This document shows positions 2,858-26,015 of a stretch of DNA of 26,015 nucleotides, one piece after another. The stretch is from Fibrobacterales bacterium (GTDB lineage: Bacteria; Fibrobacterota; Fibrobacteria; Fibrobacterales; JAOPTW01): positions 1 to 26,015 of the forward strand of contig JAOPTX010000082.1 in the NCBI GenBank assembly GCA_051532055.1, written 5' to 3'. Every line of letters begins with the position of its first letter. Within the stretch, counting starts at the first letter, position 1. A program made the translations under genes and the position numbers. A model generated the notes under the pieces. That model did no database searches, was not told the origin of the DNA, and worked only from the letters and a program-made list of their open reading frames with translations.

Positions 2858-4375
2858 CTAATGCAAATTATTGGCAATCTCATTAAACGACCGACCGTTC
2901 CGGTCATAAATCCCAAACCAGCCTGCATCATCCCAAACAGAATAGGGAGTGTTCCATTTTTTGAGTGCACTGGTAACAATATCATAATACGCCACAGCCG
3001 CCCCCCAGTCACGACCTTTTTCATTATTGCTGTGCATCACACCAAACTCACCGCAATAGGCAGGAATACCCAGTGTCCCTTGTACCCATGCTAATATAGT
3101 GTCCATGTCAGACCAAATCTGCCCATGGCTCCACCAGGCATATTCAAACTCATGGGTAAACGAAATCGGATCATAGTAGTGAAACTGCACCATAGTATAA
3201 TCATCAATAGGAAACGAAACATTATACAAGTCCTTCCAATGTCCCCAGTTACCGGCACCTGCAATAATGACCCGTTGAGGATTTGTTGCACGAATAGTTG
3301 GGAAGAGTGCATGATTCATATCAGTCACTTCACCAGCGCCCATTGCGCCTCGTGGTTCATTAAACAGCTCAAAAACCAGATTCTCATTTTTACCTTTAAA
3401 ACGCTCTGCAACCTGACTCCAGATATAGAAGAGTTTGTCTTTGTTGCCCCAGTAGTTATCAATAACCCAGTTTTCATGATGCGCATTTATAATGGTAACC
3501 AACCCCCGTGAGAGCGACCAATCAACCACCTGCTCCACTCTATCTATAAACCCCTTGTCTATGGTACCGTTACCATCAATATGATTCCCCCATTTTATGG
3601 GTATTCTCACATTTTTAAATCCATTACTTTTGTAATCATCAAAAAAGTACGGCTCAGCAGCTTTTGCCCATGCTCCTTCAGTAGGAGCTTCGAGTGTATT
3701 CCCCATATTGATCCCCTTCCCCATGCGCGCAGCCATATCCCAGTTCGATACGGCTTTAAAAGAACGGTTTGGGTCCTCATCGCCCCACTCAGAATTTCTA
3801 CTCTCATCTTTCGCAGGAGGTGCCGGTTGTTCAGAAGTATCATTCTCAGCAGTATTCTGTTCTTCCTCTTCCTCTGCCTCTTCCCGACTCTCAAGATACC
3901 CCTCAATACTGGCAATCACCCTAACACGGTCATATGTTCCTTGAGCCTTTTGATCTTCTATATATTGTTCTATATATTTTCGTGTTCCCGTATCAACATC
4001 AAACTGATCGAGGTCTATCTCGTCATACTGCTCTTCTTGTTTTTCTGATTCATTACTTGTTGAGGATTCAAGATCTTCATCCGCATCTGATGCATCCTGA
4101 TTTTGCTCCCGGAGAGTAGTATCCATTTTACGGGATACCGCGCCCAATGTCTCACTATCATTTTTGGGTTCATTCTCAGAAGTGCTTTCCTGCTCCTCAC
4201 CCTCATCATCATCCATTACCGATTCTGAATCTCGTTCCCCTGAATCAGACTCTGTTGATCCCAGTTCTTCATCAGTAGTATTAACCGCTTCTATTGATAA
4301 GGAATCGGGTGAGCTACACCCTACAAATAACACCATAGTGGCTAATAAATACGATATAACAACAAATAGATACAT
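2858..4375 (-). CDS. Glycoside hydrolase family 5 lipoprotein (endoglucanase/mannanase-like) with long acidic N-terminal region
   Basis: Lipobox-like LFVG-C; GH5 motifs GINMGNTLEAP, VRIPIKW, IINAHH, FELFNEP (acid/base Glu), QFHYYDP, YCGEFG (nucleophile Glu), WDD; AAGGGG RBS. Confidence 0.93.
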   Translation of the reverse strand: MYLFVVISYLLATMVLFVGCSSPDSLSIEAVNTTDEELGSTESDSGERDSESVMDDDEGEEQESTSENEPKNDSETLGAVSRKMDTTLREQNQDASDADEDLESSTSNESEKQEEQYDEIDLDQFDVDTGTRKYIEQYIEDQKAQGTYDRVRVIASIEGYLESREEAEEEEEQNTAENDTSEQPAPPAKDESRNSEWGDEDPNRSFKAVSNWDMAARMGKGINMGNTLEAPTEGAWAKAAEPYFFDDYKSNGFKNVRIPIKWGNHIDGNGTIDKGFIDRVEQVVDWSLSRGLVTIINAHHENWVIDNYWGNKDKLFYIWSQVAERFKGKNENLVFELFNEPRGAMGAGEVTDMNHALFPTIRATNPQRVIIAGAGNWGHWKDLYNVSFPIDDYTMVQFHYYDPISFTHEFEYAWWSHGQIWSDMDTILAWVQGTLGIPAYCGEFGVMHSNNEKGRDWGAAVAYYDIVTSALKKWNTPYSVWDDAGWFGIYDRNGRSFNEIANNLH

Positions 4376-5347: not shown

Positions 5348-5595
5348 TTAACACTACCCCAATCATACTTTTCAATCACACGGTCATTAATTACTGATTC
5401 GTAACCGTGACATACATTTTAATTAGGCTATCACGATACCGAGAATGAATTATGAACATTAATTCACAATTAAAAACCAATTGTGTTCTTTAACTTTGAA
5501 TTGTGATTTTGCGTTCACAATTACATTTTCTCTCATTTCAATTGATAATATTGTTTCATACAAATCAATACATCAGAATAAAGGAAGAGTGTAAC

Positions 5596-7973: not shown

Positions 7974-10900
7974 ATGTCAATAGAGTCAAATCGAGAGTTA
8001 TTGGGTGAAAAAATCCACGAAACCTCTCATACAGCAATCTATCAGACTACTCGCGATAGTGATGAGAAGAGCATTGTTCTAAAAGCTCTCAGTAAAAAAT
8101 ACCCTGAAGCCCACGATATTGCCCGCATTAAACGCGAATATGAGATAACCTCCAAGTTACAACATATCGACGGTGTTATCGAAATATATTCCCTGGAAAA
8201 ATACAGCCAAAGTAATTTTGCTATTTCCATGGAGCACTTTGGAGTCTCTTTTGCAGACATCCTGAGATCCGGCAAAACACTCTCTCTAGATTTCTTTTTT
8301 AATAGTGCCATCAAACTGGTTGAAACTCTGGGAGAAATTCACCAGTGTAATATAATTCACAAGGATATTAATCCGACAAATATTTTATGCGACTCCGATA
8401 CCGGTGCAGTCAGGATTATCGACTTTGGTATTTCATCTGAACTCTCAAAAGAGCGTCAGGATATAAACGTATACCAACGCTTGGAAGGGTCACTCCCCTA
8501 TATCTCTCCGGAGCAAACCGGACGCATGAATCGCGACCTTGATTACCGCTCCGACTATTACTCCCTCGGAGTAACCTTTTATGAACTCCTCACCGGGCAT
8601 ACTCCGTTTCAGGCAAATGATATTCTCGGCTGGATACACAGCCATATTACCAAGGTCCCCAATGCGGCTAACCTTACGGGAATGAATGTCCCCATACCAC
8701 TCTGTGACATCATATTAAAGCTATTATCAAAAAATGCAGAGGACCGCTACCAAAGTGCCTATGGTCTCATTTACGACCTTAAGAAAACTCTGGAACAGTG
8801 GAAACAAAAAATCAGTACCCCCTTTGAGTTGGGTCGATTTGATATTTCACATAAATTTCAGATCCCACAAAAGCTCTATGGGCGTGAAGAAGAAGTAAAA
8901 GTGCTTCTGGATGTTTTTGCTGAAGTATCATTTGGTCAGACCGAAATGATTCTAGTATCCGGGTATTCAGGTGTAGGTAAATCTGCCCTAGTACAGGAGA
9001 TACAAAAGCCAATAGTACGCGATGCCGGTTATTTTATAGAGGGCAAGTTCGACATACTGAAAAGCAGTACACCCTATTCTGCCATTACTCAAGCCTTTCA
9101 AAGTCTGGTTCAGCAGTTGCTTGCTCAGCCGGGAGATGTAATCGAGTTTTGGAAAGATATATTACTCAGGGCACTGGGAAGAAACGCCCAGGTATTACTT
9201 GATTTCATTCCCGATCTTGAAATGATTATTGGAGAGCAGCCACCAGTTCCAGCACTCTCCCCTAACGAATCACAAAACAGGTTTCACCACGTATTCCTTG
9301 ATTTTATTAAGGTACTTGCACAAGAAGATCACCCTCTCGTCTTTTTTCTAGATGATCTCCAGTGGGCTGATATTCCATCATTAAACCTGTTAGAAAAAAT
9401 ATTCAAAACCGATACACTGTCACACCTTCTCTGTATTGGTGTGTATAGAAGTAATGAAGTTGAATCGGGGCACCCGCTCCTGCAAACGCTTGATGAGATT
9501 GATAAAGTAAAAGAAGTTAATACACTCATTGTAGAGGCACTGAACGAAGTATCAGTGAGTCAACTTGTTGCCGATTCACTGCAGTGTACCGAAGAAGAGT
9601 CGTATACTCTCAGTGCACTCATTTATTCCAAGACCAAAGGTAACCCATTTTTTATCGGAGAGATGTTAAAGAACCTTTTTAAAGACGGGTCCATCACCTT
9701 TAATAACCAAATTGGAAAATGGGAATGGGATATGACGGAGATCAACAAAGTCTCCATTTCAGACAATGTCATCTCATTCATGGTTGAAAGCCTGCAAAAA
9801 ATATCAACCGATGTACAGAGAGCACTTCAGATTGCTGCATGTATTGGTAACCAGTTCGACCTTAAGACGCTCTCTACCGTTTTGAAATGTACTATGGATG
9901 TGGCTAACCATAAACTTGAAGGGCCACTCAGCCAAGGGCTTATTATCCCGCTTAATGAGAGTTATAAGTTTATTAGCCACACGCCAAGTGGTTCAATGAG
10001 CGACTTGAACCCCCGATATGCCTTTCAACACGACTATATTCATCAGGCCGCCTACGCCCTTGTTAATACAGGAATCGAACAGGTGCACTTAGAGATTGGC
10101 CGGATGCTTTTTTCCAGCACAGCCACCAGAGACCTTGATAAAAGAAAACCAGACATTGTTCGACATCTGAACGTTGGCAGAAACCTGATAACCGACGACA
10201 TTGAACAAGAAGAGCTGGTACAACTTAATCTAGAAGTAGGTCTTCAGGCTAAAAAATCAAATGCATACCCTTCGGCACTTGAATTTGCCGAGATCGGACT
10301 GGGACTTCTTTTTGAAGACCCCTGGGAAAAACAGTACGATGTGACTCTTGCATTAAAAACTCTCTATGTACAGTGCTCCTATCTGATGGGCAGAGATGAG
10401 ATATCCGAAACCACTATTACAGAAATACTTTCACACACAAAGAGCAACCTCGAAAAAGCAGAAACTCTAAACATTCGGTCCTATCAATATATCACACGGG
10501 GCAAACTCGAAAAAGCGATACTCAGTGGTCTGGAAGGTTTATCTCTCTTAGAAACAAAGCTCCCTTACAAGCCGAATAAATTTCGCTTAATGAAAGAGAT
10601 TCTGCACATTAAGCTCCTGCTTCGCAAACATACCATACCAGGCCTTATAAATAATCCGGTTATGAGTGAGCCGATTCCTAAAATGGCGATCCAGCTTCTT
10701 TCCGAGATTTCACCTGCAGCTCTTTTTACCGGTAATGTAAACCTGGTTGCACTTACCACACTTAGACAAGTAGTACTTTCGTTACAATTTGGTAATACTC
10801 CTCAGTCCGCATTTTCATACACCACTTTTGGTGGAATTATCTCTTTTAAATTACGTAACTATTCTTTAGGGTATGAGTTCGGTAAACTCGGCCTCGCTTT

Positions 10901-13379
10901 AAATGAACAGTTTAATGATATACATTACCGTTGCCGAGTTATCGCGACCTATGGATTTTTTGTTCATCATTACAATGAACACTGGAGCACCCTTACCCCC
11001 CTTTTCCAAAAAGGGCTGGAGGCAGGCCATCTATCGGGAGACTACCAGTACTATGCACGGTGCGCACTCTATGGCGCTATCTGGAACCCCATGTACTCGC
11101 TGGAAGAGTCGTGCCATGAACAGGAAAAAGCCCAAGAGATAATTAAAAACACCGGATATCCGGATGCCCTTGATGGCTCCGAGCTCTTTCTACAAATGAC
11201 CAGAAACTTTCGTGGAGAGACCGATGATCGTCTCACGATGAATGACAAAAAGTTTAATGAAGAAGAGTGCCTCCAAAGAATGCAGGATCGAAAATTCCTT
11301 TCGGGCTGCACCATTTATTATTTCTGGAAGAGTGAAATCTATTTCTTTTACGAAGAATTTGAGCTGGCTCTTGAGACTGCTCAAAAGGGATATGATATCA
11401 TTGGACCTCTTATTGGTTCTCCTTATGAAGTACGATTTGTCATTCAGTATTTTCTCTGTTTAGCTGCGTGCTATCCAAAGCGCAGCTTTAGCGAGCGTGC
11501 AAATATCCGCAAAAAGATGAAGATTGAGTATAAGAAAATGAAGGTCTGGGCAGATCACTGCCCCGTCAACTTCTTACATCTACAACTCATTATGGAAGCA
11601 GAGCTCGCGCGCTTGACCGATAATACCGAATTGGCTCCAGCACTGTATGATCAGGCTATTGAAACAGCCAACACCAATGAATGGCTCAGAGACAAAGCAC
11701 TCGCCAATGAACTCGCTGCACGTTACTATCTGGGAATTAACCGTGAGAATGTAGCCGGCATGTATATGCGTGAGGCCTACTACCTCTATTCTCTGTGGGG
11801 TGCTCACGCAAAGTTAAAATACCTAGAAGAAGAATACTCATCACTCATTGCTGAATGGCTTCAAGACAAGGCTATTGAGTTGGCTACGCGCGCCGGTTCT
11901 AGCAGATGGGAGTCACGTACGGGTACACGATTTAGTACACACGGCAAAACAAGAACCAGAACCAGAACCCGCTCCCGACTCAGCACCCATTCAGGTACTG
12001 CAACAGCAGTTACCAACTCCTCTTCTACACTGGATATTTCGGAGATACTCGACCTAGAAACGGTAATAAAAGCCTCTCATGCAATCTCAGGTGAAATAGA
12101 ACTAGAGATACTCCTTAAAAAAATGATGGCAATCATAATAGAAAGTTCAGGAGCTCAATCCGCATACCTCATGCTTGAAAAAGATTCCGAATGGCTGGTA
12201 GAGGCAGAAGCAAATGTAAACACCGATCAGGGAACCATTTTGCAGTCAATACCTATAAAAGATGAATCGGTACTGATTTCACGGCCTATGATAAACTATG
12301 TTGCCCACACCAAAGAAACTATTGTAATTGACAATGCCGGCACCGACCAACGATATGCGCACGATAGCTATATCTCAACCCATAAACCCAAATCAGTACT
12401 CTGCACCCCCGTTATGCGTCAGGGAACCATTATCGGAGTTCTGTATCTGGAAAACAATGCGACAGCCGGTACATTTACTTATGACCGACTCGAGACCTTA
12501 AAAATATTATCAACACAGATGGCGATCTCTATTGAAAATGCCCGGTACTACGCTTCACTCAAAGTGGCCAAGGCCGAACTGGAAGAATACAGTCAAAACC
12601 TTGAGCGAAAAGTAGAAGAACGCACCATAGATCTGAATCATCAGTCCGCCGAGTTGCAGAAAACCAATGCGCAATTAAAGCGCCATCAGGCTATGCAAAA
12701 ACAGTGGCTTTCAGATATTTCTCATGAACTCAGAACTCCTCTTACTATCCTACAGAACGAGATACAAGCGATTGAAGATGGTATCATTGAGATTACGAAA
12801 GAATCGGTACACTCACTCCTTGAAGAGACAGAACGGATTCAGAAGATTATCGGTGACCTCCATGAACTCTCACTCGGTGAGAGTGGCGCACTTATTGTAC
12901 AAAAAGAACTTTTCAATCCCGTTACCGTACTGACAAACGACATTATGTTTTTCAGAAATAAATTTTCTGAAAATGATGTCGAGGTTGAACTTGATTTACA
13001 AGGGACTGAAGATACTCTTATTATCGCAGACAAAGTCCGCTTGAAACAAATTTTTACTAACCTGCTTAAAAATTCTATTAAATATACCGACAGCCCGGGA
13101 CACCTTAAGATTAGCGCTTTTATTCAAAGCAATAGTATTCATATTAATTTTGAAGATTCTCACCCAGGCGTTAATAATTCTGATTTACCCTATCTATTTG
13201 ACCGACTCTACCGTACCGAAGAAGCACATTTTGGTACCCAAAGCGGAAGCGGTCTCGGTTTATCTATCTGCAAAATGCTCACAGATTTTATGGGAGGCAC
13301 CATCAGTGCCGATCATTCACCACTTGGTGGTGTAAAGTTTTCACTACAATTCCCTGTTGCCACAATGGAGGCTCCTTGA
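7974..13379 (+). CDS. Multidomain Ser/Thr kinase - AAA ATPase - helical repeat - GAF - histidine kinase
   Basis: Kinase motifs IVLK, IIHKDINPTNIL, IIDFG, YISPEQTGRMNR, SDYYSLG; Walker A GYSGVGKS and Walker B FFLDDLQWAD; GAF (INYVAHTKETIVIDNA...SVLCTP...GVLYLENN); H-box ISHELRTPL; N-box NLLKNSIKYT; G-box GSGLGLSIC. Confidence 0.95.
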   Translation: MSIESNRELLGEKIHETSHTAIYQTTRDSDEKSIVLKALSKKYPEAHDIARIKREYEITSKLQHIDGVIEIYSLEKYSQSNFAISMEHFGVSFADILRSGKTLSLDFFFNSAIKLVETLGEIHQCNIIHKDINPTNILCDSDTGAVRIIDFGISSELSKERQDINVYQRLEGSLPYISPEQTGRMNRDLDYRSDYYSLGVTFYELLTGHTPFQANDILGWIHSHITKVPNAANLTGMNVPIPLCDIILKLLSKNAEDRYQSAYGLIYDLKKTLEQWKQKISTPFELGRFDISHKFQIPQKLYGREEEVKVLLDVFAEVSFGQTEMILVSGYSGVGKSALVQEIQKPIVRDAGYFIEGKFDILKSSTPYSAITQAFQSLVQQLLAQPGDVIEFWKDILLRALGRNAQVLLDFIPDLEMIIGEQPPVPALSPNESQNRFHHVFLDFIKVLAQEDHPLVFFLDDLQWADIPSLNLLEKIFKTDTLSHLLCIGVYRSNEVESGHPLLQTLDEIDKVKEVNTLIVEALNEVSVSQLVADSLQCTEEESYTLSALIYSKTKGNPFFIGEMLKNLFKDGSITFNNQIGKWEWDMTEINKVSISDNVISFMVESLQKISTDVQRALQIAACIGNQFDLKTLSTVLKCTMDVANHKLEGPLSQGLIIPLNESYKFISHTPSGSMSDLNPRYAFQHDYIHQAAYALVNTGIEQVHLEIGRMLFSSTATRDLDKRKPDIVRHLNVGRNLITDDIEQEELVQLNLEVGLQAKKSNAYPSALEFAEIGLGLLFEDPWEKQYDVTLALKTLYVQCSYLMGRDEISETTITEILSHTKSNLEKAETLNIRSYQYITRGKLEKAILSGLEGLSLLETKLPYKPNKFRLMKEILHIKLLLRKHTIPGLINNPVMSEPIPKMAIQLLSEISPAALFTGNVNLVALTTLRQVVLSLQFGNTPQSAFSYTTFGGIISFKLRNYSLGYEFGKLGLALNEQFNDIHYRCRVIATYGFFVHHYNEHWSTLTPLFQKGLEAGHLSGDYQYYARCALYGAIWNPMYSLEESCHEQEKAQEIIKNTGYPDALDGSELFLQMTRNFRGETDDRLTMNDKKFNEEECLQRMQDRKFLSGCTIYYFWKSEIYFFYEEFELALETAQKGYDIIGPLIGSPYEVRFVIQYFLCLAACYPKRSFSERANIRKKMKIEYKKMKVWADHCPVNFLHLQLIMEAELARLTDNTELAPALYDQAIETANTNEWLRDKALANELAARYYLGINRENVAGMYMREAYYLYSLWGAHAKLKYLEEEYSSLIAEWLQDKAIELATRAGSSRWESRTGTRFSTHGKTRTRTRTRSRLSTHSGTATAVTNSSSTLDISEILDLETVIKASHAISGEIELEILLKKMMAIIIESSGAQSAYLMLEKDSEWLVEAEANVNTDQGTILQSIPIKDESVLISRPMINYVAHTKETIVIDNAGTDQRYAHDSYISTHKPKSVLCTPVMRQGTIIGVLYLENNATAGTFTYDRLETLKILSTQMAISIENARYYASLKVAKAELEEYSQNLERKVEERTIDLNHQSAELQKTNAQLKRHQAMQKQWLSDISHELRTPLTILQNEIQAIEDGIIEITKESVHSLLEETERIQKIIGDLHELSLGESGALIVQKELFNPVTVLTNDIMFFRNKFSENDVEVELDLQGTEDTLIIADKVRLKQIFTNLLKNSIKYTDSPGHLKISAFIQSNSIHINFEDSHPGVNNSDLPYLFDRLYRTEEAHFGTQSGSGLGLSICKMLTDFMGGTISADHSPLGGVKFSLQFPVATMEAP

Positions 13380-14110
13380 GCGATACCCAAATGATACTGA
13401 TAGTCGAAGATGAAGTAAAAATTGCAACAATGCATGAAAAATACATGCAAGCTGCCGGTTACAATACTCATGTATTGCACCGTGGAGACGTTGTTGAAGC
13501 ATTTGTAAAGAGTAATACTGTTGACCTCATTATTTTGGATGGGGCACTCCCCGGTAAAGATGGTTTTGATGTCTGCCGGAGTATCAGAGAATTTTCTGAA
13601 GTACCCATTATTATTGTTTCGGCACGGGCTGAGGATATCGATCGCCTGATCGGTCTTGAGATTGGGGCAGATGATTATATCTGTAAACCATTTAACATCC
13701 GTGAAGTGGTAGCCCGAGTTAAAGTGGTTCTCAAACGTTCACATTCAGTAGAGACTCAAGCTGATCATAAACTCTCTGTCGGACCTATAGCCCTTGATAA
13801 CCTTCTAAAGAAAGCTTTAGTCAATGAGATTGATCTTGATTTAACTGCTACACAATTTACCATGCTCTATACCTTTATAAAAAACCCTGGGCGAGTTTAT
13901 TCACGTAAGGAGCTCGTGCAGAGTGCATCAGGGTATGAGTTTGACGGCTATGATTTTGAAGGATATAATCGCACCATTGATACGCATATTAAAAACATCC
14001 GGAAAAAACTTGAAGCAGTTCTTGGCTCCAAAAGGATTATCAGCTCCGTATATGGCGCGGGATATCGCTTTGATGCTGATGAGCTTGAGGCGTGTTCGAT
14101 TACTGGGTAA
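13376..14110 (+). CDS. OmpR/PhoB-family response regulator, BaeR-like
   Basis: Receiver ILIVEDE, DLIILD, SAR, GADDYICKPF; winged helix PGRVYSR...RTIDTHIKNIRKKL...SVYGAGYRF; TTG start overlaps kinase TGA (TTGA) with GGAGG RBS. Confidence 0.94.
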   Translation: MSDTQMILIVEDEVKIATMHEKYMQAAGYNTHVLHRGDVVEAFVKSNTVDLIILDGALPGKDGFDVCRSIREFSEVPIIIVSARAEDIDRLIGLEIGADDYICKPFNIREVVARVKVVLKRSHSVETQADHKLSVGPIALDNLLKKALVNEIDLDLTATQFTMLYTFIKNPGRVYSRKELVQSASGYEFDGYDFEGYNRTIDTHIKNIRKKLEAVLGSKRIISSVYGAGYRFDADELEACSITG

Positions 14111-14269: not shown

Positions 14270-17200
14270 TTAAAGACTTTGTCTAAATGAGACTATAACA
14301 GGAACGTCGAACCCTGAGGCATTCGCTTGACCGACATAATGAAAATTTTTCGCTTCTATGTAATACACGCCGAGCAAAGATATTTGTCCCGCGTCATTCT
14401 TTACAACATCCATCGTAATAGGGTATGAAAGTTCTATCTTACTAGACATCCAACTGTTTAAATTAAAATGTATCATCGCATTGCTAAAATCATACTCACC
14501 GTCATTCGTTACTGAAATGCCTTTGATGCCGGTATATGTCATGTAGTCGGGATAGTATCTTAAAAAAGTATCAACATCATCACATATGTCTACGCCGGGC
14601 AATTCTTCATAGATATTATATAAAACAGGACCATCAATCTCGAAAGTCATCGTTCCGTTGTCTTCAACTACCCGTGTAAAATCAAATACTTCGTCATCTG
14701 AACAGGTGAGCGCCTTCGTCGGCACTCCCTCCTCCTCTCGGTTACCATTATAATACTGCATTGAAAAATCTATTTTTAAAACACTGTTCTCATTAGGGAA
14801 CCCTAAAAAGTCAATGGCGTCAATCTCAATACTGAGTCCGTTCGTGAGGTAAGGCGTAAAAACATTAGTCATCTCTAGTCCTGCGGTATCATTATTAATG
14901 GTCCATGCATAAAAATCATTCGTATAGAATGGTGTCTCTCCTTTCCAGAACACATAAGTAGCGGTATCCTGCGAATAGACATCGACCTGAGACGTGGCAA
15001 TGGTTTGGTCACTAATGTTCGTGATTTCAACTTCAATGAGTTCACCGTTGAGGGTCTGGAATTCATCGGGTGTTATGCGGTACAGTTCAGGAAGAGCGAT
15101 ATTTGGTGAAGAAAATACACCGATGGTTGTTGCCCCAGCTGGACCTGAAGGGGCCATCCATACCCATGAGTCATTGATACCTTCACTGCCCGCTGATTCA
15201 ATAATGCGCCAATTTGGATCGAGTTCATTCCAATCAGTCCCTGAATGATTATAGACGTACAGTTGATCATTTCCCTTCGTTACCAAGGTATAATCATCAA
15301 CGGTTATCAATGGTATTTCCTGAGAGATGCCCGGGGGGATTATCGTCGTAACAAGACTGTCCCCGCCATCCGTACTGTAGATATCAATCCCAGTATCCTG
15401 AGCGATCGCTAGGGTTAGCCCAGTGCTGGAGATTGCCACAGAGTTTCCATCAACATAAAATTCACCGGCCGTCCAACTATCTGAATTTCCATCATAGTCA
15501 TAGCGCTGTACCGAACCGCTTTCCAAGGCAACGTACAAAATATTCATAGAATAGGGATTAAACACCAACGCGCGACTCGTGTATGACGACAGGCTGACAT
15601 TGGCTATTGTTGCTGTTGCAGTCCAATTACCATTTTCCCAATCAAAAATATGGATTCCATCGTCCGCGCTTACAGCCAGTCGCCCTCCCATATACTCATC
15701 GTACACGAGCGTCACTGCACCACTCGGTGTCGAATTTCCCAAATTGACATTGTCATATGACAAGTTATCTGGGTCGCTTGTGTTAACGACCATCAACGCA
15801 ACGTCTGTCGCTATCGCCAGCCGATCACCCGAGGCGGAAAACTGAGAATTAAGCTGATCAATGTCTCCGGAATAATCCACATTTATGCGTCCCCTTTGCG
15901 ACCATTCATTACCGTCATCGGTATACAGAGTGACGTTAATTTTCGACGCTGTACTGTCAATGGTTGTGATTGCTGATGCGGTATAGCCTTCAAAATAATT
16001 ATACCCACTAGCCACTGCACTGCCTATTTTACCATTAGTTGTACCATCAATACTGTCAGGAAAATTTACCGTAGATTCGAGCGTGCTATGCCAACCGTCT
16101 TCAGTGTCAAAAGTCTCCATGTTGGGTGCCGATAACCACGCCATTGGCAGCGCCCGGCTCGTTCCATCACCCATTTTGACCATTAATTTCAGTTTTGCTG
16201 AATTCCACCCTGCCCACATGGATACGCGCAGTGGATAGACCTTACCGGCTTCCAAATACACGTCATTGCCCCAATTAGATTGCTTGTCGGAGTTAGAGCA
16301 CCCCATACCCGCCAGGTTGTACAGCACCCAATTAACGCCATTATCTTCGTCATCGAACGCATTACCATCTGCATCGCGTATCATCCATGTATCTTTATTG
16401 CTGAGCGTCTTCACCGATACAGGGGTGTACTCTTTGACTCTCTTCCTGATCTTGTAGTTGAGCTCGTTGTTTGATTCACAAGCATCCTCATCGACGTTCA
16501 GTTTCCAGGAGGACTCCTGCAGGAGTGAAACTTCCTGGCCATCACTTTCAACGATCACGGCTTTGACACCACCCGTGGTTTGTGAGGCAAAATTATAGTA
16601 GCCTGTAGCAGGTACCGCCATATACGCGAAACCCTTCACCAGATACGCTTTAGACATCGGGTAGCTGGTCAAGGAAGGGCCGGACACAGACCAGTCGTAG
16701 TCCAATCCATTGCTCGTCCCCGGATACAGTAGCAAGTTTTTTACCCCCGGCTCTAATTCAGGATTGCTGTAATTCAACAGAGCCGCGTCATCCGGTTCAT
16801 CAAGAGTTATTTGCCTGTTATACATTTTACAGATCGTTTTATATTGTACAACACCATAGCCTTTTTTCCCACTACACCACCATTCAGATTCATCATTATT
16901 ATCAATAACCATTTGTTCTATGCTCTCGGTGAAATCAGCCTTCGACAGTATTGCCGCATTGGCCTTAGGTCGTATCCCGGGGTATTCACTCAATAACGTA
17001 CTATAATCATCCTGCAAATCTTTGGGAAACATCGTACTCATAAACTCGTCATCAGGCAGCATACTGTAGACAGAAAAGGCCATCGCCGCGACCCTGCTTG
17101 ATTGTACCGAGGAGTTGGCCAATATGGAGTTTGTCGCGCTTGTTTCCCCAATCCCAATGCTTGATTTAAACAAAGAATTAGCCAAAATCACGTTTGTTGT

Positions 17201-17542
17201 ACTCGTTATCCCAATTACATAGCTTTTATCTGCGTTCTTCATATCAGTATTGGTCCACACCTTGGCTTGATAAATACAATTTGAGGACAATTCACCAGGA
17301 TAAGTCCAGCTATCGGTCGACACCCAGCCCGACTCTAGAGTAGCCCCCGAACAATTATCAAGGGGCTTCAAGCTGTAATAGTAACTGCCTGCTCCTTCTG
17401 TATTAGCCTCAATCGTTGTCTCGGCCAAGACGGCAGGGCTAACCATAAGAGTAACGAGAAAACAATGGACGGCTATCAATCGGTACTTGGCAATAATGCC
17501 ATGGCCAAACGAATATGCGTTAGCGATTAGGTTATTTTTCAT
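14270..17542 (-). CDS. Large secreted hypothetical protein, paralog B (PA14-like segment plus beta-propeller-like region)
   Basis: Start reassigned to ATG 17542 (AGGAG 7 nt upstream; matches paralog MKNN start); signal peptide ending AVLA; PA14-like pattern VKGFAYMAVPATGYYNF...VYLEAGKVYPLRV; beta-rich repeats (GDRLAIA, GGRLAVS, VAISSTGLTLAIA); colinear with 18069..21395. Domain calls are tentative. Confidence 0.8.
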   Translation of the reverse strand: MKNNLIANAYSFGHGIIAKYRLIAVHCFLVTLMVSPAVLAETTIEANTEGAGSYYYSLKPLDNCSGATLESGWVSTDSWTYPGELSSNCIYQAKVWTNTDMKNADKSYVIGITSTTNVILANSLFKSSIGIGETSATNSILANSSVQSSRVAAMAFSVYSMLPDDEFMSTMFPKDLQDDYSTLLSEYPGIRPKANAAILSKADFTESIEQMVIDNNDESEWWCSGKKGYGVVQYKTICKMYNRQITLDEPDDAALLNYSNPELEPGVKNLLLYPGTSNGLDYDWSVSGPSLTSYPMSKAYLVKGFAYMAVPATGYYNFASQTTGGVKAVIVESDGQEVSLLQESSWKLNVDEDACESNNELNYKIRKRVKEYTPVSVKTLSNKDTWMIRDADGNAFDDEDNGVNWVLYNLAGMGCSNSDKQSNWGNDVYLEAGKVYPLRVSMWAGWNSAKLKLMVKMGDGTSRALPMAWLSAPNMETFDTEDGWHSTLESTVNFPDSIDGTTNGKIGSAVASGYNYFEGYTASAITTIDSTASKINVTLYTDDGNEWSQRGRINVDYSGDIDQLNSQFSASGDRLAIATDVALMVVNTSDPDNLSYDNVNLGNSTPSGAVTLVYDEYMGGRLAVSADDGIHIFDWENGNWTATATIANVSLSSYTSRALVFNPYSMNILYVALESGSVQRYDYDGNSDSWTAGEFYVDGNSVAISSTGLTLAIAQDTGIDIYSTDGGDSLVTTIIPPGISQEIPLITVDDYTLVTKGNDQLYVYNHSGTDWNELDPNWRIIESAGSEGINDSWVWMAPSGPAGATTIGVFSSPNIALPELYRITPDEFQTLNGELIEVEITNISDQTIATSQVDVYSQDTATYVFWKGETPFYTNDFYAWTINNDTAGLEMTNVFTPYLTNGLSIEIDAIDFLGFPNENSVLKIDFSMQYYNGNREEEGVPTKALTCSDDEVFDFTRVVEDNGTMTFEIDGPVLYNIYEELPGVDICDDVDTFLRYYPDYMTYTGIKGISVTNDGEYDFSNAMIHFNLNSWMSSKIELSYPITMDVVKNDAGQISLLGVYYIEAKNFHYVGQANASGFDVPVIVSFRQSL

Positions 17543-17561
17543 TTTCATTCTCCTAGAATCA

Positions 17562-17654
17562 TTTTGTGACTCTATTATGCAATTCTTCTTATTCTTCAAA
17601 TATATGGATTAAATGTGAATCGAATTTGAGTGAATAGTGAAGAGAATGTGAAGA
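17562..17654 (-). promoter_or_regulatory. Duplicated upstream regulatory segment, copy 1, with 11-bp-phased TTCAC repeats
   Basis: 93 nt matching 21416..21508 with 2 mismatches; plus-strand GTGAA at 17615, 17637, 17648 and degenerate TTGAG at 17626. Confidence 0.75.
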
Positions 17655-17690
17655 ATTAAATAAAGCTGTTATTCAATTTCACATTTTCAT

Positions 17691-17717
17691 CTGGTCATCG
17701 CTTTGTCTAAATGCGAC
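17691..17717. repeat. 27-nt imperfect direct repeat of the 3' end of paralog A
   Basis: ctggtcatcgctttgtctaaatgcgac versus ctagtcttcgctttgtctaaatgagac at 18069..18095 (24/27 identical). Confidence 0.8.
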
Positions 17718-17844
17718 AAAGAGGAGGGGGGCTGTAACGGTATTTCGAAACAAACTTTACCCCATTTCCAACCAGTGGAAATGATAAAGATAAAAGGGGG
17801 ACGGAGGTCATTCATTTGCCGGTTACCTCATCTAGCATAGAATA

Positions 17845-17868
17845 GGACCACCCGCTTGGCGGGTGGCC
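17845..17868 (-). terminator. GC-rich hairpin, probable terminator after the lectin-tail reading frame
   Basis: Minus strand GGCCACCCGC-CAA-GCGGGTGGTCC followed by TATTCT, about 15 nt past the TGA at 17883. Confidence 0.65.
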
Positions 17869-17882
17869 GTTTACAAAACAGC

Positions 17883-18068
17883 TCAGTTTGTATGGGTGGA
17901 CCACAGAGCTGTGCCGCCTTTGTAGATAACCAGATTGCCGTCGCCTTGCATAGCCAGCGTACGGTTTAGGGTGCTGATGGATTCACCGGCATCTAACTGA
18001 AATTGGCCGGCAGCGAATCTGTATGACGAAGGAACAGCCGCTTGCTCCTCGATTTGAAAATCTACAAC
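17883..18068 (-). pseudogene. Bulb-type (GNA-like) lectin coding segment in frame behind the TAG of paralog A (gene remnant or readthrough extension)
   Basis: 61 sense codons VVDFQIEEQAAVPSSYRFAAGQFQLDAGESISTLNRTLAMQGDGNLVIYKGGTALWSTHTN then TGA; contains QxDxNxVxY and the typical trailing W-S-T; no start codon with RBS of its own evident. Confidence 0.7.
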
Positions 18069-21000
18069 CTAGTCTTCGCTTTGTCTAAATGAGACTATAA
18101 CAGGAACGTCGAACCCTGATGCATGCGCTTCACCGACATAATGAAAATTTTTCGCTTCTATGTAATACACACCTAACAATGATATTTGTCCCGAGTCATT
18201 CTCTACAACATCCATCGAAATAGGGTAAGAAAGCTCGATCGTTCCATAACTCCAGCTTTTTAATTTAAAATGTACCACAGCATTGCTAAAATCATAATCA
18301 CCGTTATCCTTCACTGTAATACCTTTGATGCCAGTATATTTCATGTAGTCGGAATAGTATTTTAAAAACGAATCAACTTCATCACATACGTCTACGCCTG
18401 AGATTTCATCATAGATATTATATAAAAACATACCATCAATCTCGAAAGACATCGTTCCATCGTCTTCAATCACACGTCTAAATTCAAACACTTCGTCATC
18501 TGCACAGGTAAGTGCTTTGCTCGGCACTCCCAACTCATCCTTATTACCATTATAATACTGCATTTGAAAATCGAGTTCTAACACACTATTGGTATCAGGG
18601 AACCCCAAAAAGTCAACCACGTCAATCTCAATATTCGTTCCGCTCATAAGGTACGACGAAAAGATATTAGTCATCTCTATGCTTGCGGCATCATTATTAA
18701 TGGTCCATTTATAAAAATCATTCGTATAGAATGGTGTCTCTCCTTTCCAGAATACATAACTACTTGAATCATTCGAATAGATATCGAGCTGAGTCGTGGG
18801 GATGGTTTGGTCACTGATGTTAGTGATAGTAACTTCCACAAGTTCACCATTAAGAGTCAGAAGTTCATCGGGTATCAAATAGTACAGTTGAGCAAGTGCG
18901 ATATTTGTTGTTGGAAATACACCGATAGTTGATCCCCCACCCATACCTGAAGGAGCTATCCATAACCACGAGCCATTGGTACCATCACTATCATCTAATT
19001 CAATGGTGCGCCAATTTGGATCCAGCTCATTCCAATCAGTCCCTGAATGAGTGTAGACATACAGCTCATCACTGCCCTGCGCTACCAAGGTAAAATCATC
19101 AAGGGTTATCAATGGTGATTCCTCAGTAATACTCGGGGGGATTATCGTCGTGACAAGACTTTCCCCGCCACTGGTAGTGTAGATAGCAATCCCTGTATCC
19201 TGAACTATTGCCATGGTTTGCCCAGTATTAGAGATTGCCACCGAGTTTCCAGTAGCATCAAAATTACTGGCCGTCCAACTATTTGAACTATAGTCATAAC
19301 GCTGTACCCGACCACTGTTTAAGGCAACGTACAAAGTTTCCATAGAATTGGGATTAAACACTAATGCGCCGTTCATGTCTGGCGATAGGCTCACATTGGC
19401 TATTGTTGATGTTGCAGTCCACGTACCATTATTCCAATCAAAAAAATGGATTCCATCATCCGCGCCCACGGCCAGACGCCCTCCCATATCCCCATCGTAA
19501 ATGAGCGATAGTGCACCTGTTGGTACTATATTTCCTAGGGAGACATTGACATATGACAAATTATCTGGGTCGCTTGTATTGACTACCATCAACGATGCAT
19601 CTGTCACTATCACCAACCGATCACCCCAGTAAGCATATCTCGAATCAGTCGCGGAGGAAAACCGAGAATCAAGCTGATCAATATCTCCAGAGTAAGACAC
19701 ATCAAGGCTTCCCCGTTGCGTCCATCCATTGCTGCTATCAGTATACATACTGATGTTGATTACCGATGCTTCACTGTCAATTGTTGTGATTGCCGCAGGA
19801 GCATATCCTCCCCAATAATTATAACCACCGGCCACTGCACTGCCTATTGTAGCATCATTGCTGTCTGGAATACTTGCAGGAGATTCGAGTGCGCCGTGCC
19901 AACCGTTTTCGGTGTCAAAATTATCCATGTTCGGAGCTGATAACCACGACATCGGTAGCGCCCGGCTCGTTCCATCGCCCATTTTGACCATTAATTTCAG
20001 TTGTGCAGAATTCCAGCCCGCCCACATGGACACGCGCAGTGGATAGACCTTGCCGGCTTCTAAATAAACATCATCGCCCCAATTGGATTGCGCGCCGGAA
20101 TTGGAACACCCCACACCCGCCAGATTGTACAATACCCAATTAATGCCATTATCATCGTCATCGAACTCCTTACCATTTTTATCTTTTATTATCCACGTTT
20201 CTTTATTGACTATTGTATTAACCCCTACGATGCTATACTCTTTGACTCTTTTTTTGATCTTGTAGCTGAGCTCGTTGCTTGATTCGCAAGCCTTTTTATC
20301 GACATTCAGTTCCCAGGAGGATTCCTGCAGGAGTGAAACTTCCTGTCCATCACTTTTAACAATCTCGGCTTTGACACCACCCGTGGTTTGTGAGGCAAAA
20401 TTGTAGTAGCCCGTGACCGGCACTGCCATATATGCGAAACCTTTCACCAAATACGCTTTTGAGAGAGGGTAGCTCGTCAGAGAGGGGCCGGACTGCGACC
20501 AGTCGTAGTCAAATTCATTGCTTGTACCTGGGAACAGAAGCAAGTTTTTTACCCCCGGCTCCAATTCGGTATTGTTGTAATTCGACAAAGCTGGTTCATC
20601 AGGCTCATCAAGGGTAATTTGTCTGGTGAATAATTTACAGATCGTTTTATATTGTACAACACTCCATCCCCTTCTCCCAACGCACCACCAATCAAAATAA
20701 TCATCATTTGTAATAACCATTTTATCAGTGCTCTCGTCAAAATCGGCCGTCGATAGTATTGCCGCATTAGCCTTGGGCTCTATTCCAGGATAATTCGCCA
20801 TCAGAGTATCATAATCATCCTGCAAGTCTTTAGGGAACATCGTACCCATAAACTCGTCATCGGGCAGCATACTGTAAACAGAAAAGGCCATCGCCGAGAT
20901 CCTGCTTGATTGCCCCGAGGAATAGGTCGAAATAGATGTTGTTGTACTTGTACTATTTGTAGTACTTGTAGTTGTAGTTGAGCTTGTCAAGCTCGTTGTC

Positions 21001-21395
21001 CCAGCCATATAGCTTGATTGCCCCGTAGAATTAGCAAAAGTGGAGTTTGTCGTACTTGTTGTCCCAATTTCATAGCTTTTATCGGCATTTTTCATGTCAT
21101 TATTGGTCCACACCGTGGCTTGATAAATACAGTTGGAGGGCAATTCACCAGGATAGGTCCAGCTATCGGTCGATACCCAGCCCGACTCTAGAGTAGCCCC
21201 TGAACAATTATTAGTGGGACGCAAACTGTAATAGTAACTGTCCGCTCCTTCGGTATTAGCTTCAATCGTTGTCCCCGCCAAAACAGAAGGGCACACTATG
21301 AGGGTAACGAGAATACAATAAACTGTTAATAACCGGTATTTGGCAATTTCACTATAGCCAAAAGAATTTGAGTGAGTGAATGGGTTGTTTTTCAT
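18069..21395 (-). CDS. Large secreted hypothetical protein, paralog A (PA14-like segment plus beta-propeller-like region)
   Basis: 1108-aa ORF, AAGGAG RBS, signal peptide ending SVLA, Ser/Thr-rich linker, colinear and highly similar to 14270..17542. Domain calls are tentative. Confidence 0.82.
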   Translation of the reverse strand: MKNNPFTHSNSFGYSEIAKYRLLTVYCILVTLIVCPSVLAGTTIEANTEGADSYYYSLRPTNNCSGATLESGWVSTDSWTYPGELPSNCIYQATVWTNNDMKNADKSYEIGTTSTTNSTFANSTGQSSYMAGTTSLTSSTTTTSTTNSTSTTTSISTYSSGQSSRISAMAFSVYSMLPDDEFMGTMFPKDLQDDYDTLMANYPGIEPKANAAILSTADFDESTDKMVITNDDYFDWWCVGRRGWSVVQYKTICKLFTRQITLDEPDEPALSNYNNTELEPGVKNLLLFPGTSNEFDYDWSQSGPSLTSYPLSKAYLVKGFAYMAVPVTGYYNFASQTTGGVKAEIVKSDGQEVSLLQESSWELNVDKKACESSNELSYKIKKRVKEYSIVGVNTIVNKETWIIKDKNGKEFDDDDNGINWVLYNLAGVGCSNSGAQSNWGDDVYLEAGKVYPLRVSMWAGWNSAQLKLMVKMGDGTSRALPMSWLSAPNMDNFDTENGWHGALESPASIPDSNDATIGSAVAGGYNYWGGYAPAAITTIDSEASVINISMYTDSSNGWTQRGSLDVSYSGDIDQLDSRFSSATDSRYAYWGDRLVIVTDASLMVVNTSDPDNLSYVNVSLGNIVPTGALSLIYDGDMGGRLAVGADDGIHFFDWNNGTWTATSTIANVSLSPDMNGALVFNPNSMETLYVALNSGRVQRYDYSSNSWTASNFDATGNSVAISNTGQTMAIVQDTGIAIYTTSGGESLVTTIIPPSITEESPLITLDDFTLVAQGSDELYVYTHSGTDWNELDPNWRTIELDDSDGTNGSWLWIAPSGMGGGSTIGVFPTTNIALAQLYYLIPDELLTLNGELVEVTITNISDQTIPTTQLDIYSNDSSSYVFWKGETPFYTNDFYKWTINNDAASIEMTNIFSSYLMSGTNIEIDVVDFLGFPDTNSVLELDFQMQYYNGNKDELGVPSKALTCADDEVFEFRRVIEDDGTMSFEIDGMFLYNIYDEISGVDVCDEVDSFLKYYSDYMKYTGIKGITVKDNGDYDFSNAVVHFKLKSWSYGTIELSYPISMDVVENDSGQISLLGVYYIEAKNFHYVGEAHASGFDVPVIVSFRQSED

Positions 21396-21415
21396 ATTTA
21401 ATCTCCTTGAGTCAT

Positions 21416-21629: not shown

Positions 21630-24600
21630 TTAAAAAGCATAAACTGGGGGCATGTACATAGGTGCTTCGGGGGCAACGGTACATTGGGGGACACTTGCAA
21701 AATTACTTCCGTTTAGCGTTTCAACGCTCCCATGGATAGGAGTTTGGCTAACGCTAGTTGTTGGGCTCGCACTAGCGGCCTGCACCCCATATCCAATCCC
21801 GTATCCAATCATATAGCCAATCGCACCACCAGCAGCGCCATAGGCTGCACCCATTCCAGCCATTTCCAATGATTGTATTGCATCGCCATTAGTCGCCATG
21901 CCATAAACAAAAAGACCAACGCCTCCCGAAACGGCACCTGCTGCGACCGCAGTACCGAGCCCTATTGCGAAGAGGCTCGGAGCCATGAATCCTATGGCGC
22001 CACCAGTAGCTAAACCGATTGCTACACCGCCTATAAATGCCCACATGTAAGGGTTTTCTACGTCCCAAAAACCTTTCGAAAAGATATTGTTGTTGGGCGA
22101 GTTTCCACTGGGGTCATTCAAGTTAATTGGGTCAGAATTGGCGTAGTCATAAGGACTGCTGCCCCCGTTAAAAGTCGGATCCGTCGTAGTAAAACTGTGT
22201 AACATAGGCACATAAACCCGAGCACCCATCAAGACAATATCAATCGCGAGGGACTCAGTTTCAACGCCACTGGCACCATCATAACCGTATACCGGTGCTG
22301 AGCTCACCACTTCTGGTGCTGCAGTCAACGCTTCGCCGTAAGGACTATAGAGTACTAAATCGGCCTGCTGTGCACCTACTTCGTCGGTAGTTAATAGCGC
22401 ATGTCCTTGCAGACTGCTGTGCTGCCAGCGCTGTGTTGTTGCATCGGCTGAAAAAGAGACCATCACGCCACCAGGGAGAGCTACTGTTTGGCTCTGTGGA
22501 ACTCTCAGGTTGTTGAGTACCCACCCATTGCTGCTGTATAGATTGTAGAATTCCGTCACACCATCTTGCTGAATCTCTTTAGCGATGAGGCGATTATCAG
22601 CGCTACGGATGTAATCTACGCTTTTACCCGCATTATCACTCGTCGCTACGAGTTGATTTTCCTGGTCATAGCTCAACGACAATGTAGTGCCGTCGCCTTT
22701 GGTGAGCGTTGCCATGTTGTAACCACTAGCATCGTAAGTCACCGCAACGTCATTGATATCAGTGTCCGAATTAATAGCCGTTAGACCATCGACATAGTTG
22801 TAAGCAAATTCCTTGACTTCTACACCGCTCGGGCTGGTCACTGTTTCTTTGGTCACCGCACCGTCTTTACCCGCCTGAGGATTCAAACTGTTAACGTTAT
22901 CATAATCAAAATCATAAGCCCATGTATACTCTCCGCCGTTCAGGTCCGGGTGGTCGCCACTTAAGTTTGCATTGATCAAACGTAACGCATTGTCATAAGT
23001 GTAAGTGTAGTTCGCCATTGTACCATCAGGCGACTTCAAAATTTCACCCATGATGCGCCCTGAGGGTGCTAACATAAGCATATCTTCTACTTGCTCGTCA
23101 TTGGCTAAGGTCAGTGTCTGACGCTCAGTACGACCGTATGGTCCTTGTAAGGCCTCCTGTTTGACCCCGTTTCCGTAATTGATGTTCACACTAGCATTAG
23201 CATCGTTGTAGTCCGCACTTGCCAGTAATACATCATTGCGAGTCAGCGAGGTAATACGGCCCGCAGCATCGTGGTAACTCACCAATCTACTCGAATAGTT
23301 ATTCCCATTAGTATCAGTGATCGTCGTGGTACGAGTCGTACTCTGTATGCGATCGTCATATTCTGTGATCACCACCGTGCCCCATTCGTCGATGGTTTCA
23401 ACCACGCGACCGAGCATGTCTTTGGTAGTGCGCGCAGCAGTGCTGTTATCACTCCCTACAGTAGATCGTTGGGTCACACGAGATTGACTACCAGTCAGGC
23501 CGTATTCATACGTCAGTTGCTTAGCAGAAGCATCGTCGGTGGCGGGTACATCGATAGTTACCACACGCCCGCGATCGTCGTACGTCATACAACTGGCGGC
23601 TTCGTCATCAACCTTCGTACCTACCTTCTGCCCCGATTCGTTATAAAGAATTGTGACCGTGCGCCCCGCCGTATTCGCCTGTGTCGGGTGTGCTATAGTA
23701 ACTCCAGCCAAACTCCCTGATTGTGTATACGCTCCGTCGCACTCTGCAGTGCCGCCATCCCAATAACTAAAACTTGATGCCATGCCTGATGGGAGCGTCT
23801 GACCGGCAAGACGGCCATAACTATCGCCATACTCTAACGCAGTGGTCAGCTCCAGTTCCATCGGATCTGCAGTCTGAGACTTTGGGGTACCCAATATTGG
23901 ATCATGATATGCCACTGAGGTACTGAGGGTAGTGGTCTGCTCCATCTCATTCAGCTGCTCGTTGCCTGATGTCTGAGTTTTTAATCCCAAGCCAGGGCTC
24001 AAATCGATATCACTTAAGGGTTCCCATGTAGCCGTGCCAGCTCTGCTGAAAGTAGCCAAATTCAAGGTACCCGAAGTATTTTCAGTGCTGCAGTCTATTA
24101 ATACTGTCACCGGTATAACCTCGCCGGCTGTTGCGTCTATAATATTCACCTTTCTTGAATTATTCCGCACCGCACCACTCGCAATCAAGGTAACGCTTGC
24201 CGCAGTATTACCCGACATCAACGCACGAATATGGAGTTTGCCGTCACTTGGTACCGTGAGAACGGTACTGAACACTGCTGACCAGCCATCGGTCGCGCTA
24301 AACCCGTCGAGATCAGTCATGTCAAAACTGGTCTTGCTCACACCAATCGCTGCAGGTGCTCCCACGAAACCCGATTGATTCCACGCACGCACCACGAGAG
24401 GATCAATCTTCTCATCGTATACTGTAGTGACAAAAGGTACGATATCATCGATAGGTGTGCCGTCAGTATTAAATCTCATCTCGTTTGCAGGACCATAAAC
24501 GGTCTCAATGCGTCCGTATGCATCAAAGTGTGCAGTACGCTTTAAGCCTCTACCGTCAACTACCGAACTCAAACGGTCTTCATCACCGTCCCACTCGTAG

Positions 24601-26015
24601 CTGGTCACCATGCCAGTCACAAGATCTGCGTCACTGACAGTACGCCAGCGACTGTCATACGTCACTGTTTTCAAAGGGGTGTCCTGTCCATTAATTTGAC
24701 GAGTTACTGTAGTTGCTGAGTCGTTATAATCGTATGTGTGACTGAAGCGACTTGCTCCCGATGAGGGTGCCGGCGATTCAATAGCTTCAACCCGTCCGTC
24801 AGACAAATAGCTGATAGCATACCGACGATCACTGTCCACACCATCGCTGGCATCAGCGTCAGCTGCTTCTGCAGTACGCAATTCAGCTAACCGACCTGCA
24901 AGGTCGTATGCAAAGTCCACAACTTTACCACCAGTTTGTTCAACGCGAGCAAGCTGTGCATCCTTGTAAAACAGCGTAGTCGTGCGTCCGTCAAGATTGA
25001 TAAAGCGAGATAATTTCCCTGATGGAGGGTAACTATCAAAACCGGTTCGTGAATAATTCCCCGGGTACATGTAATAGAACAAAGCACGGCGATTGCTGAC
25101 TGGGTCGGTGATTCCGATAATCCGGTTAGCACTCCAGCTCAGTTCCCATTGTGTCTCACTGCCCTGCCCTGCAACCGATTTCGATTGAAGATTCCCGTAG
25201 CTATTAAACACCGACACGTCACCACTCATAGTGGTGTAAATAATTTCGCCGTCGTCGTTTACTGTCAGGCTCCCCGCCAGTCCAGCCGAGAGGTCATCCT
25301 GACCAGTCGCTTGCCAAAGAGCATCGGTTTCTGACTGTACGAAAGTCAGCGCGCCACCCGACAGAGTACTCAAGGTAATCGCGTCTAGGTTATCACTATA
25401 AGTGGCTTGTACATAGCCAAGGTCGGATAAACCTGCTAATGACCAGCCCTCAGAAATATTTGTAGTCGTATGCTTCGCCGAAGAGTACGACAGCGATAGA
25501 CGGAGTTGACCGGCTACAGTGGGTACACCGATTGTACCGGCGGCAGTAGTCAGTTCCCCGGAAGCCAGACCAACACTCATCGGCCCGAAGGCATCGACTG
25601 CCTGCACATTCCTGCGCCGGGTATCTACGGTAAAGGAAGCCCAGTCGTTACTCGTGCCTTGAGACTGATCAATCACCTTCCAATAGTAAGAGCCACCTTG
25701 CTCTAACAGGCTCGATGGAATCTGCCAGCTACGTGACGTAGTCGCTCCTGATTCGAACATATTAACCGATTCGCCAGCCTCTGTTGGCGCCGAGGCCACA
25801 ATGTAATTTAATGTGGGACCAGTCAAAGAAGTGGGAGCATTTAACCGAGGGCTGAGAGTGGTTACCACCTGGCCATCTTCGGCATCGATATCAGCCGTGA
25901 GTGAAAGTGCCGTGGCTTGTGCACCAACGCTGACATCATCTAAAGGTAGTAGACTGGTTGCGGCCATCCAGTCAACGTATTCTTCTTCTGCAATGGTATT
26001 GGCAACATTGTCAGG
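21630..26015 (-). CDS. RHS/YD-repeat protein with RHS core and hydrophobic C-terminal domain, 5' end outside the window
   Basis: Frame stays open beyond 25967 to the edge (PDNVANTIAEEEYVDWM...); many YD repeats (YDLAGRL, YDSRWR, YDDRGRV, YDNALRL); core LYSPYGE...LMGARVYVP...FTTTDP...PYDYANSDPINLNDPSG. Confidence 0.92.
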   Translation of the reverse strand, partial: PDNVANTIAEEEYVDWMAATSLLPLDDVSVGAQATALSLTADIDAEDGQVVTTLSPRLNAPTSLTGPTLNYIVASAPTEAGESVNMFESGATTSRSWQIPSSLLEQGGSYYWKVIDQSQGTSNDWASFTVDTRRRNVQAVDAFGPMSVGLASGELTTAAGTIGVPTVAGQLRLSLSYSSAKHTTTNISEGWSLAGLSDLGYVQATYSDNLDAITLSTLSGGALTFVQSETDALWQATGQDDLSAGLAGSLTVNDDGEIIYTTMSGDVSVFNSYGNLQSKSVAGQGSETQWELSWSANRIIGITDPVSNRRALFYYMYPGNYSRTGFDSYPPSGKLSRFINLDGRTTTLFYKDAQLARVEQTGGKVVDFAYDLAGRLAELRTAEAADADASDGVDSDRRYAISYLSDGRVEAIESPAPSSGASRFSHTYDYNDSATTVTRQINGQDTPLKTVTYDSRWRTVSDADLVTGMVTSYEWDGDEDRLSSVVDGRGLKRTAHFDAYGRIETVYGPANEMRFNTDGTPIDDIVPFVTTVYDEKIDPLVVRAWNQSGFVGAPAAIGVSKTSFDMTDLDGFSATDGWSAVFSTVLTVPSDGKLHIRALMSGNTAASVTLIASGAVRNNSRKVNIIDATAGEVIPVTVLIDCSTENTSGTLNLATFSRAGTATWEPLSDIDLSPGLGLKTQTSGNEQLNEMEQTTTLSTSVAYHDPILGTPKSQTADPMELELTTALEYGDSYGRLAGQTLPSGMASSFSYWDGGTAECDGAYTQSGSLAGVTIAHPTQANTAGRTVTILYNESGQKVGTKVDDEAASCMTYDDRGRVVTIDVPATDDASAKQLTYEYGLTGSQSRVTQRSTVGSDNSTAARTTKDMLGRVVETIDEWGTVVITEYDDRIQSTTRTTTITDTNGNNYSSRLVSYHDAAGRITSLTRNDVLLASADYNDANASVNINYGNGVKQEALQGPYGRTERQTLTLANDEQVEDMLMLAPSGRIMGEILKSPDGTMANYTYTYDNALRLINANLSGDHPDLNGGEYTWAYDFDYDNVNSLNPQAGKDGAVTKETVTSPSGVEVKEFAYNYVDGLTAINSDTDINDVAVTYDASGYNMATLTKGDGTTLSLSYDQENQLVATSDNAGKSVDYIRSADNRLIAKEIQQDGVTEFYNLYSSNGWVLNNLRVPQSQTVALPGGVMVSFSADATTQRWQHSSLQGHALLTTDEVGAQQADLVLYSPYGEALTAAPEVVSSAPVYGYDGASGVETESLAIDIVLMGARVYVPMLHSFTTTDPTFNGGSSPYDYANSDPINLNDPSGNSPNNNIFSKGFWDVENPYMWAFIGGVAIGLATGGAIGFMAPSLFAIGLGTAVAAGAVSGGVGLFVYGMATNGDAIQSLEMAGMGAAYGAAGGAIGYMIGYGIGYGVQAASASPTTSVSQTPIHGSVETLNGSNFASVPQCTVAPEAPMYMPPVYAF

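Follow-up and report, generated by a model that had tools for sequence, protein, structure and literature searches.

Gene-end tail of paralog A

We found that the gene for a large, secreted-looking protein of a Fibrobacterales bacterium (paralog A) is followed, directly behind its amber stop codon and in the same reading frame, by what family-level similarity and a QxDxNxVxY motif identify as an undecayed repeat of a bulb-type lectin, a mannose-binding kind of domain of which it makes up one third. We lean towards the reading that this linker-plus-lectin tail was once fused to A until a nonsense change, recent and likely CAG>TAG, silenced it. The features lie in the 26,015-nt stretch of DNA that was analyzed here (the window):

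18069-21395, minus strand: paralog A, an ORF of 1108 amino acids ending in TAG
18069-18071, minus strand: TAG stop of A, in the context GAC TAG G
18009-18068, minus strand: tail residues 1-20, a predicted β-strand (VVDFQIE) and then an Ala/Pro/Ser linker, from low-confidence AlphaFold models
17886-18008, minus strand: tail residues 21-61, assigned as the first subdomain of a bulb-type (GNA/MMBL) lectin
17948-17922, minus strand: QGDGNLVIY motif of the tail
17883-17885, minus strand: TGA closing the tail; at this site Gly is present in 144 of 233 natural repeats
17846-17868, minus strand: GC-rich, terminator-like hairpin with a weak U tract
Example tail peptide: FAAGQFQLDAGESISTLNR

Paralog A has an N-terminal hydrophobic leader (a by-eye reading) and a weak PA14/GLEYA-like region, and its C-terminal part is without outside homologs. 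Re-reading of the ORFs over 18071-17883 bore out a sequence-only reading of this DNA made earlier, which had noticed 61 sense codons in A's frame behind the TAG (18068-17886) and then a TGA (17885-17883). It had also placed the first terminator-like hairpin after the TGA, and the hairpin at 17868-17846 is indeed the sole one in 17400-18400 (fold z -2.5; shuffles yield 0.7 such sites on average). The extension length by itself is unremarkable: in-frame extensions of at least 61 codons follow 48 of the 544 TAG-ending long ORFs in the genome (8.8%), compared with 99 of the 1168 that end in TAA (8.5%). Since the first possible start codon within the tail is M40, inside the lectin part, the tail is not a separate gene. 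Its GC content is 0.51 versus 0.40 in A's last 61 codons, and its GC3 of 0.52 falls inside the range of A's own 61-codon windows (0.30-0.59).

The bare QxDxNxVxY motif turns up a single time when the genome is read in all six frames, against 0.78 occurrences expected by chance. As neither length nor bare motif beats chance, the lectin call rests on the wider match. A phmmer search against PDB sequences returned 35 sequences, nearly all of them bulb-type lectins or lectin-like bacteriocins, with a single-repeat E-value of 7e-4 to GAFP-1 and pyocin L1. A single-repeat HMM, built from two thirds of 155 loci in metagenome and genome contigs, gave the tail 55.8 bits and rank 17 of 134 among held-out natural repeats, a score and rank that are favored by the selection of those loci for similarity to the tail. 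On these two results the lectin identity proposed in the sequence-only reading was right, and its suggested B_lectin profile search came out divided: the single-repeat HMM matched, whereas Pfam B_lectin (PF01453) stayed under its gathering cut-off of 32.4 (13.3 bits, E 0.12), as expected of one third of a domain. In the ESM Atlas the tail resembles clusters that contain B_lectin (0.91-0.93, recognition low).

Tail residues 21-61 align with residues 7-46 of GAFP-1 (1xd5), which comprise the first repeat and its lead-in strand, and hold the full QxDxNxVxY motif and the next Trp. Unlike the GNA/bulb-type lectins, such as GAFP-1 and garlic agglutinin, the tail has one of three subdomains, about 41 rather than about 110 residues, and stands behind a stop codon. 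The best single-repeat similarity is to the LlpA bacteriocins (pyocin L1, putidacin L1), from which the tail differs in having neither tandem MMBL domains nor the bacteriocin architecture (NCBIfam NF033557, E 1e-4, 21.8 bits against a cut-off of 275).

A single subdomain

The bulb-type lectin domain is described in PMC3585409 as a β-prism of three subdomains with three QxDxNxVxY pockets. The single motif of the tail had already been set against the three of full domains, correctly so: six frames of 17501-18100 hold no further repeat and no trace of subdomains 2 and 3. The rest of the lectin domain is physically absent, and the tail, with one subdomain in the chain instead of three, is not a full bulb-lectin domain. 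A lone subdomain would probably not fold into a β-prism by itself.

Among 123 closed ORFs with such repeats, 117 have at least two and 6 have one. A single terminal bulb-lectin repeat is therefore rare, yet it has a natural example in L086 (JGI contig Ga0126381_100010713), one of these six, a 272-residue GH25-like protein that ends directly after its single repeat. L086 shares with the tail the order of linker, single terminal repeat and stop; it differs in its unrelated N-terminal part and in having no stop ahead of the repeat, and it is one uncharacterised example. The L086 gene (1275-2093) sits in a phage-like neighborhood with a small hydrophobic ORF directly after it, and no relatives of L086 were found in viral contigs. 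A search for the donor of the tail yielded 80 loci in metagenome contigs, 75 in genome contigs and 6 in viral contigs, all of them generic lectin repeats. No donor was found, the best near-full-length matches in metagenome and genome contigs being 44% identical, nor were there stand-alone small homologs of the tail (33-107 residues). A literature search, with most subscription journals outside its coverage, found no paper describing a bulb lectin that is gated by readthrough or has a single repeat.

Paralog B and the A/B family

14270-17542, minus strand: paralog B, 72-73% identical to A, ending FRQSL-TAA, without a tail
17611-17654, minus strand: upstream element of B with a direct-repeat box

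Paralog B had been said to end at the equivalent position without a tail. This holds for B and also for its ortholog in a second genome, G001, which ends FRQNL-TAA; the tail-less B end is conserved in two species. In G001 the contig edge cuts B down to its last 93-94 codons (dN 0.023 and dS 0.073 relative to B), and no match to the tail or to a lectin appears in this assembly, which is 91% complete and whose contig breaks inside B. Between A and B, the dN/dS values are 0.156/0.477. In the last 40 codons dS falls to 0.21, versus 0.48 for the whole genes, and the G001 ortholog of B agrees with A, not B, at three late codons, a pattern that suggests gene conversion between the ends of A and B.

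A search with A against 1.84 billion representatives gave seven matches, namely B, the full-length outside homologs P0013 and P0014 (about 32% identity), and another four that match the PA14-like region; a C-terminal lectin is absent from all of them. With two full-length outside homologs in a set of this size, A/B is almost an orphan family, and among 296 genomes of the phylum it was found only in the present one (G000) and in G001. Residues 850-1108 of A retrieved nothing from the ESM Atlas. The sequence-only reading had suggested looking for homologs with a fused tail, and none emerged from the 1.84 billion representatives, the 296 phylum genomes or the contig scans. The metagenome and genome contig scans yielded neither a fused tail nor a CAG in an intact gene, and no ortholog of A's 3' end was found there or in the 296 genomes.

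P0014 ends in TSP3/RTX repeats and P0015 in Lcl_C domains; close to the N-terminus of P0015 there is also a degenerate bulb-lectin stretch (E 0.025-0.06). As P0014 and P0015 show, the A/B family swaps its terminal modules. P0014 can be aligned through the stop so that a Gln faces the TAG, but this alignment was rejected: it was chosen post hoc, hhalign gave it a probability of 0.6% (E 0.093), and equal scores are reached by 52 of A's 1090 12-mers. For the read-through C-terminus, two AlphaFold models predict a strand-turn-strand that spans the stop position (mean pLDDT 38.7 and 53.2), which would lend weak support to a fusion. A fold search with a 345-residue model, whose confidence is too low for the result to mean anything, brought up nothing at E 0.001 or better.

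The 44-nt element upstream of B starts with a direct repeat at 11-nt spacing and recurs upstream of A (21508-21465), upstream of an RHS gene (G000 contig C112, 4343-4386) and in locus L009 (249-305); it is likely a shared regulator box. Genes for a BaeR-like regulator (13376-14110) and for a fusion of a Ser/Thr kinase with a BaeS-like histidine kinase (7974-13379) lie beside the element, and C112 has a second BaeSR-like pair. The end of C112 overlaps the window end (25994-26015) by 22 nt, and C112 carries the N-terminal part, leader included, that the RHS gene at 21630-26015 lacks in the window. L009 (1-1028, contig C126 of G001) runs from an RHS C-terminus through a terminator and a copy of this upstream element into a further RHS N-terminus, a tandem RHS array with a C-terminal tip unlike that of the window's RHS. 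P0015, P0017 and P0018 weakly resemble the N-terminal part of the RHS protein encoded at 21630-26015 (best E 7e-4 in a 7-protein database), hinting at modules shared between these distant homologs of A's PA14-like region and the RHS protein in the gene array. The window also encodes a β-helix protein with a C-terminal ricin-type lectin (5503-7683) and a GH5 cellulase-family, lipoprotein-like gene (2858-4375). Genome-wide, there are 51 Fib_succ_major matches, as would suit a member of Fibrobacterota.

A downstream copy of the gene end and a likely history

17679-17717, minus strand: copy of A's last nine codons, followed by ATG AAA ATG TGA

Three observations go beyond the sequence-only reading: an in-frame 27-nt copy with CAG, the tail as a first subdomain behind a linker, and the absence of the remainder of the domain. 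The copy (17717-17691) matches A's end at 24 of 27 nucleotides and lies 378 nt downstream in the same frame; allowing up to five mismatches, the genome has no third occurrence of this sequence. It reads CAG at the position of A's TAG, and a stop follows after three more codons. Of the three mismatches, one clearly arose in the copy (GCA, against TCA in A, B and the G001 ortholog of B); because the copy has at least one derived change, its CAG hints at the ancestral codon without proving it. Over the 40 nt after the stop position, A is weakly like the copy (106 of 2000 shuffles) and the G001 ortholog of B (25 of 2000) and unlike B (376 of 2000); taken over all six pairs of these four sequences, the similarity is weak (0 to 376 of 2000).

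We propose that a 351-nt piece (linker, lectin repeat, stop, hairpin and spacer) ended up with a copy of the gene end on either side, which would have left the displaced old gene end (...FRQSDDQMKM-stop) downstream. A CAG codon would have joined the tail to A in one continuous frame; this ancestral CAG, like the order of events, is our reconstruction. A C>T change at the CAG would then have cut the tail off, and the cell would now make mainly the 1108-residue, B-like protein. Consistent with such a silenced fusion, the tail continues A's frame and has no start of its own ahead of the lectin part, the hairpin stands after the TGA and not after the TAG, the same-frame copy carries CAG where A has TAG, the repeat is undecayed by its rank among natural repeats, and terminal modules are exchanged within the family. 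Weighing against it, the representatives, the 296 genomes and the contig scans offered no fused homolog or intact-gene CAG, the CAG may have arisen in the copy itself, B ends at this very place in two species, the P0014 alignment is not significant and the AlphaFold confidence is low.

In 5000 neutral-tail simulations, the open frame and the motif were both kept in 67%, 38%, 11% and 1.7% of cases at 2%, 5%, 11% and 20% divergence. Set beside the A-B dS of 0.48, this indicates that the arrival or silencing of the tail postdates the A/B split by a good margin, unless the tail has been under selection.

Alternative explanations

The main competitor, to which we give clearly less credence than to a silenced fusion, is that the tail is the 3' remnant of an unrelated lectin gene, placed by insertion or deletion behind a TAG that A already had and never translated with A. 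An in-frame position by chance is a 1 in 3 event, and the piece brings its own stop and hairpin. The 27-nt direct repeats that flank the 351-nt piece, the higher GC content of the tail, the occurrence of B_lectin in only 1 of the 296 phylum genomes, a gene array with tandem duplication and shuffling, and the failure to find a fused homolog among the representatives or the phylum genomes all fit a remnant. This account, however, needs a derived CAG in the copy in addition to the lucky frame, and the best near-whole-tail matches revealed no donor. The GC3 of the tail is ordinary for A, and the 40 nt behind A's stop weakly resemble those behind the copy and the G001 ortholog of B, not those behind B.

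We consider it unlikely that the amber codon is leaky under selection, with readthrough (likely as Gln) giving a minor isoform of A that carries one lectin repeat, a putative three-fold β-prism rebuilt by oligomerising and a sugar-binding subpopulation. The undecayed repeat placed before the hairpin, and L086 as a natural protein ending in one repeat, would suit this idea. In PMC9122581, 68.6% of 35 read-through in-frame stops of Salmonella were UAG, C was enriched at -1, as found here, and four of six mapped stops were decoded as Gln, at low expression; bacterial in-frame stops under purifying selection are reported to be widespread (PMC7918605). A C>T origin is common for leaky in-frame UAG stops, and the pseudogenes that these two sources describe resemble A in having an in-frame TAG ahead of an intact coding stretch. 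They differ in that the stop in A takes away no more than a terminal add-on, the remaining protein having the same kind of end as its conserved paralog. At +4 there is a G, where the Salmonella data show enrichment of C (PMC9122581). Extension rates are equal behind TAG and TAA, at least two repeats are the rule in closed ORFs, the domain is defined by three subdomains (PMC3585409), and B lacks the tail in two species.

The check for pyl genes or an amber suppressor tRNA that had been proposed was run, and neither was found in the genome, which is 94% complete. TIGR02367 (PylRS) had no match over cut-off, and no tRNA with a CUA anticodon was predicted at the default or the relaxed threshold in a tRNA set that is incomplete; on these grounds pyrrolysine or CUA suppressor recoding was rejected. 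Two relaxed-threshold 'tRNA-Stop(tta)' predictions were set aside, being flagged as possible pseudogenes that do not look like tRNAs. Genome-wide reassignment of TAG was likewise rejected, as TAG ends 544 of 1922 long ORFs and RF1 (prfA) is present, over cut-off. No 3' stimulatory RNA fold was found after the TAG (z -0.80 and +0.54, no better than shuffles). We infer at most a background amber leak at present, giving a minor product. More doubtful still is the elaborated version, in which A is an adhesin-like protein with selected amber readthrough, the single-repeat minority isoform trimerises to a full β-prism, and the stop switches both oligomerisation and sugar binding. Of the three options that the sequence-only reading had left side by side, we favor the nonsense change CAG>TAG, with some weight on a chance remnant, and find no support for programmed readthrough.

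We regard it as very improbable that the TAG reflects faulty assembly or belongs to a minority in a mostly CAG population: the genome is a metagenome assembly of 181 contigs with strain variants elsewhere in the locus, but DNA run X1 covers 17580-18108 in one 529-nt contig at depth 777 that reads TAG with 0 other letters. This run is probably the source sample and hence not independent, and contigs drop rare variants; the TAG sits 37 nt from the end of this contig, and the strain variants listed by X1 include none at the TAG. At contig level the proposed comparison of TAG with CAG gave TAG alone in this run, and no ortholog of A's 3' end was found among the relatives searched. RNA run X2 (same sample, contigs only) covers 18456-18718 and 18935-21407 of A and pieces of B; its contigs lack the tail and A's last ~130 codons and are uninformative on transcription through the TAG.

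Significance

If readthrough were selected, the locus would be an uncommon example of bacteria controlling protein isoforms through an amber codon, and a single bulb-lectin repeat could work through oligomerising. A silenced fusion and a chance remnant would both make the tail a relic with little present function. On the silenced-fusion reading that we favor, the locus would be a well-preserved snapshot of domain shuffling, useful for annotation and otherwise ordinary, in which a lectin module was gained and then silenced while the old gene end is still visible downstream.
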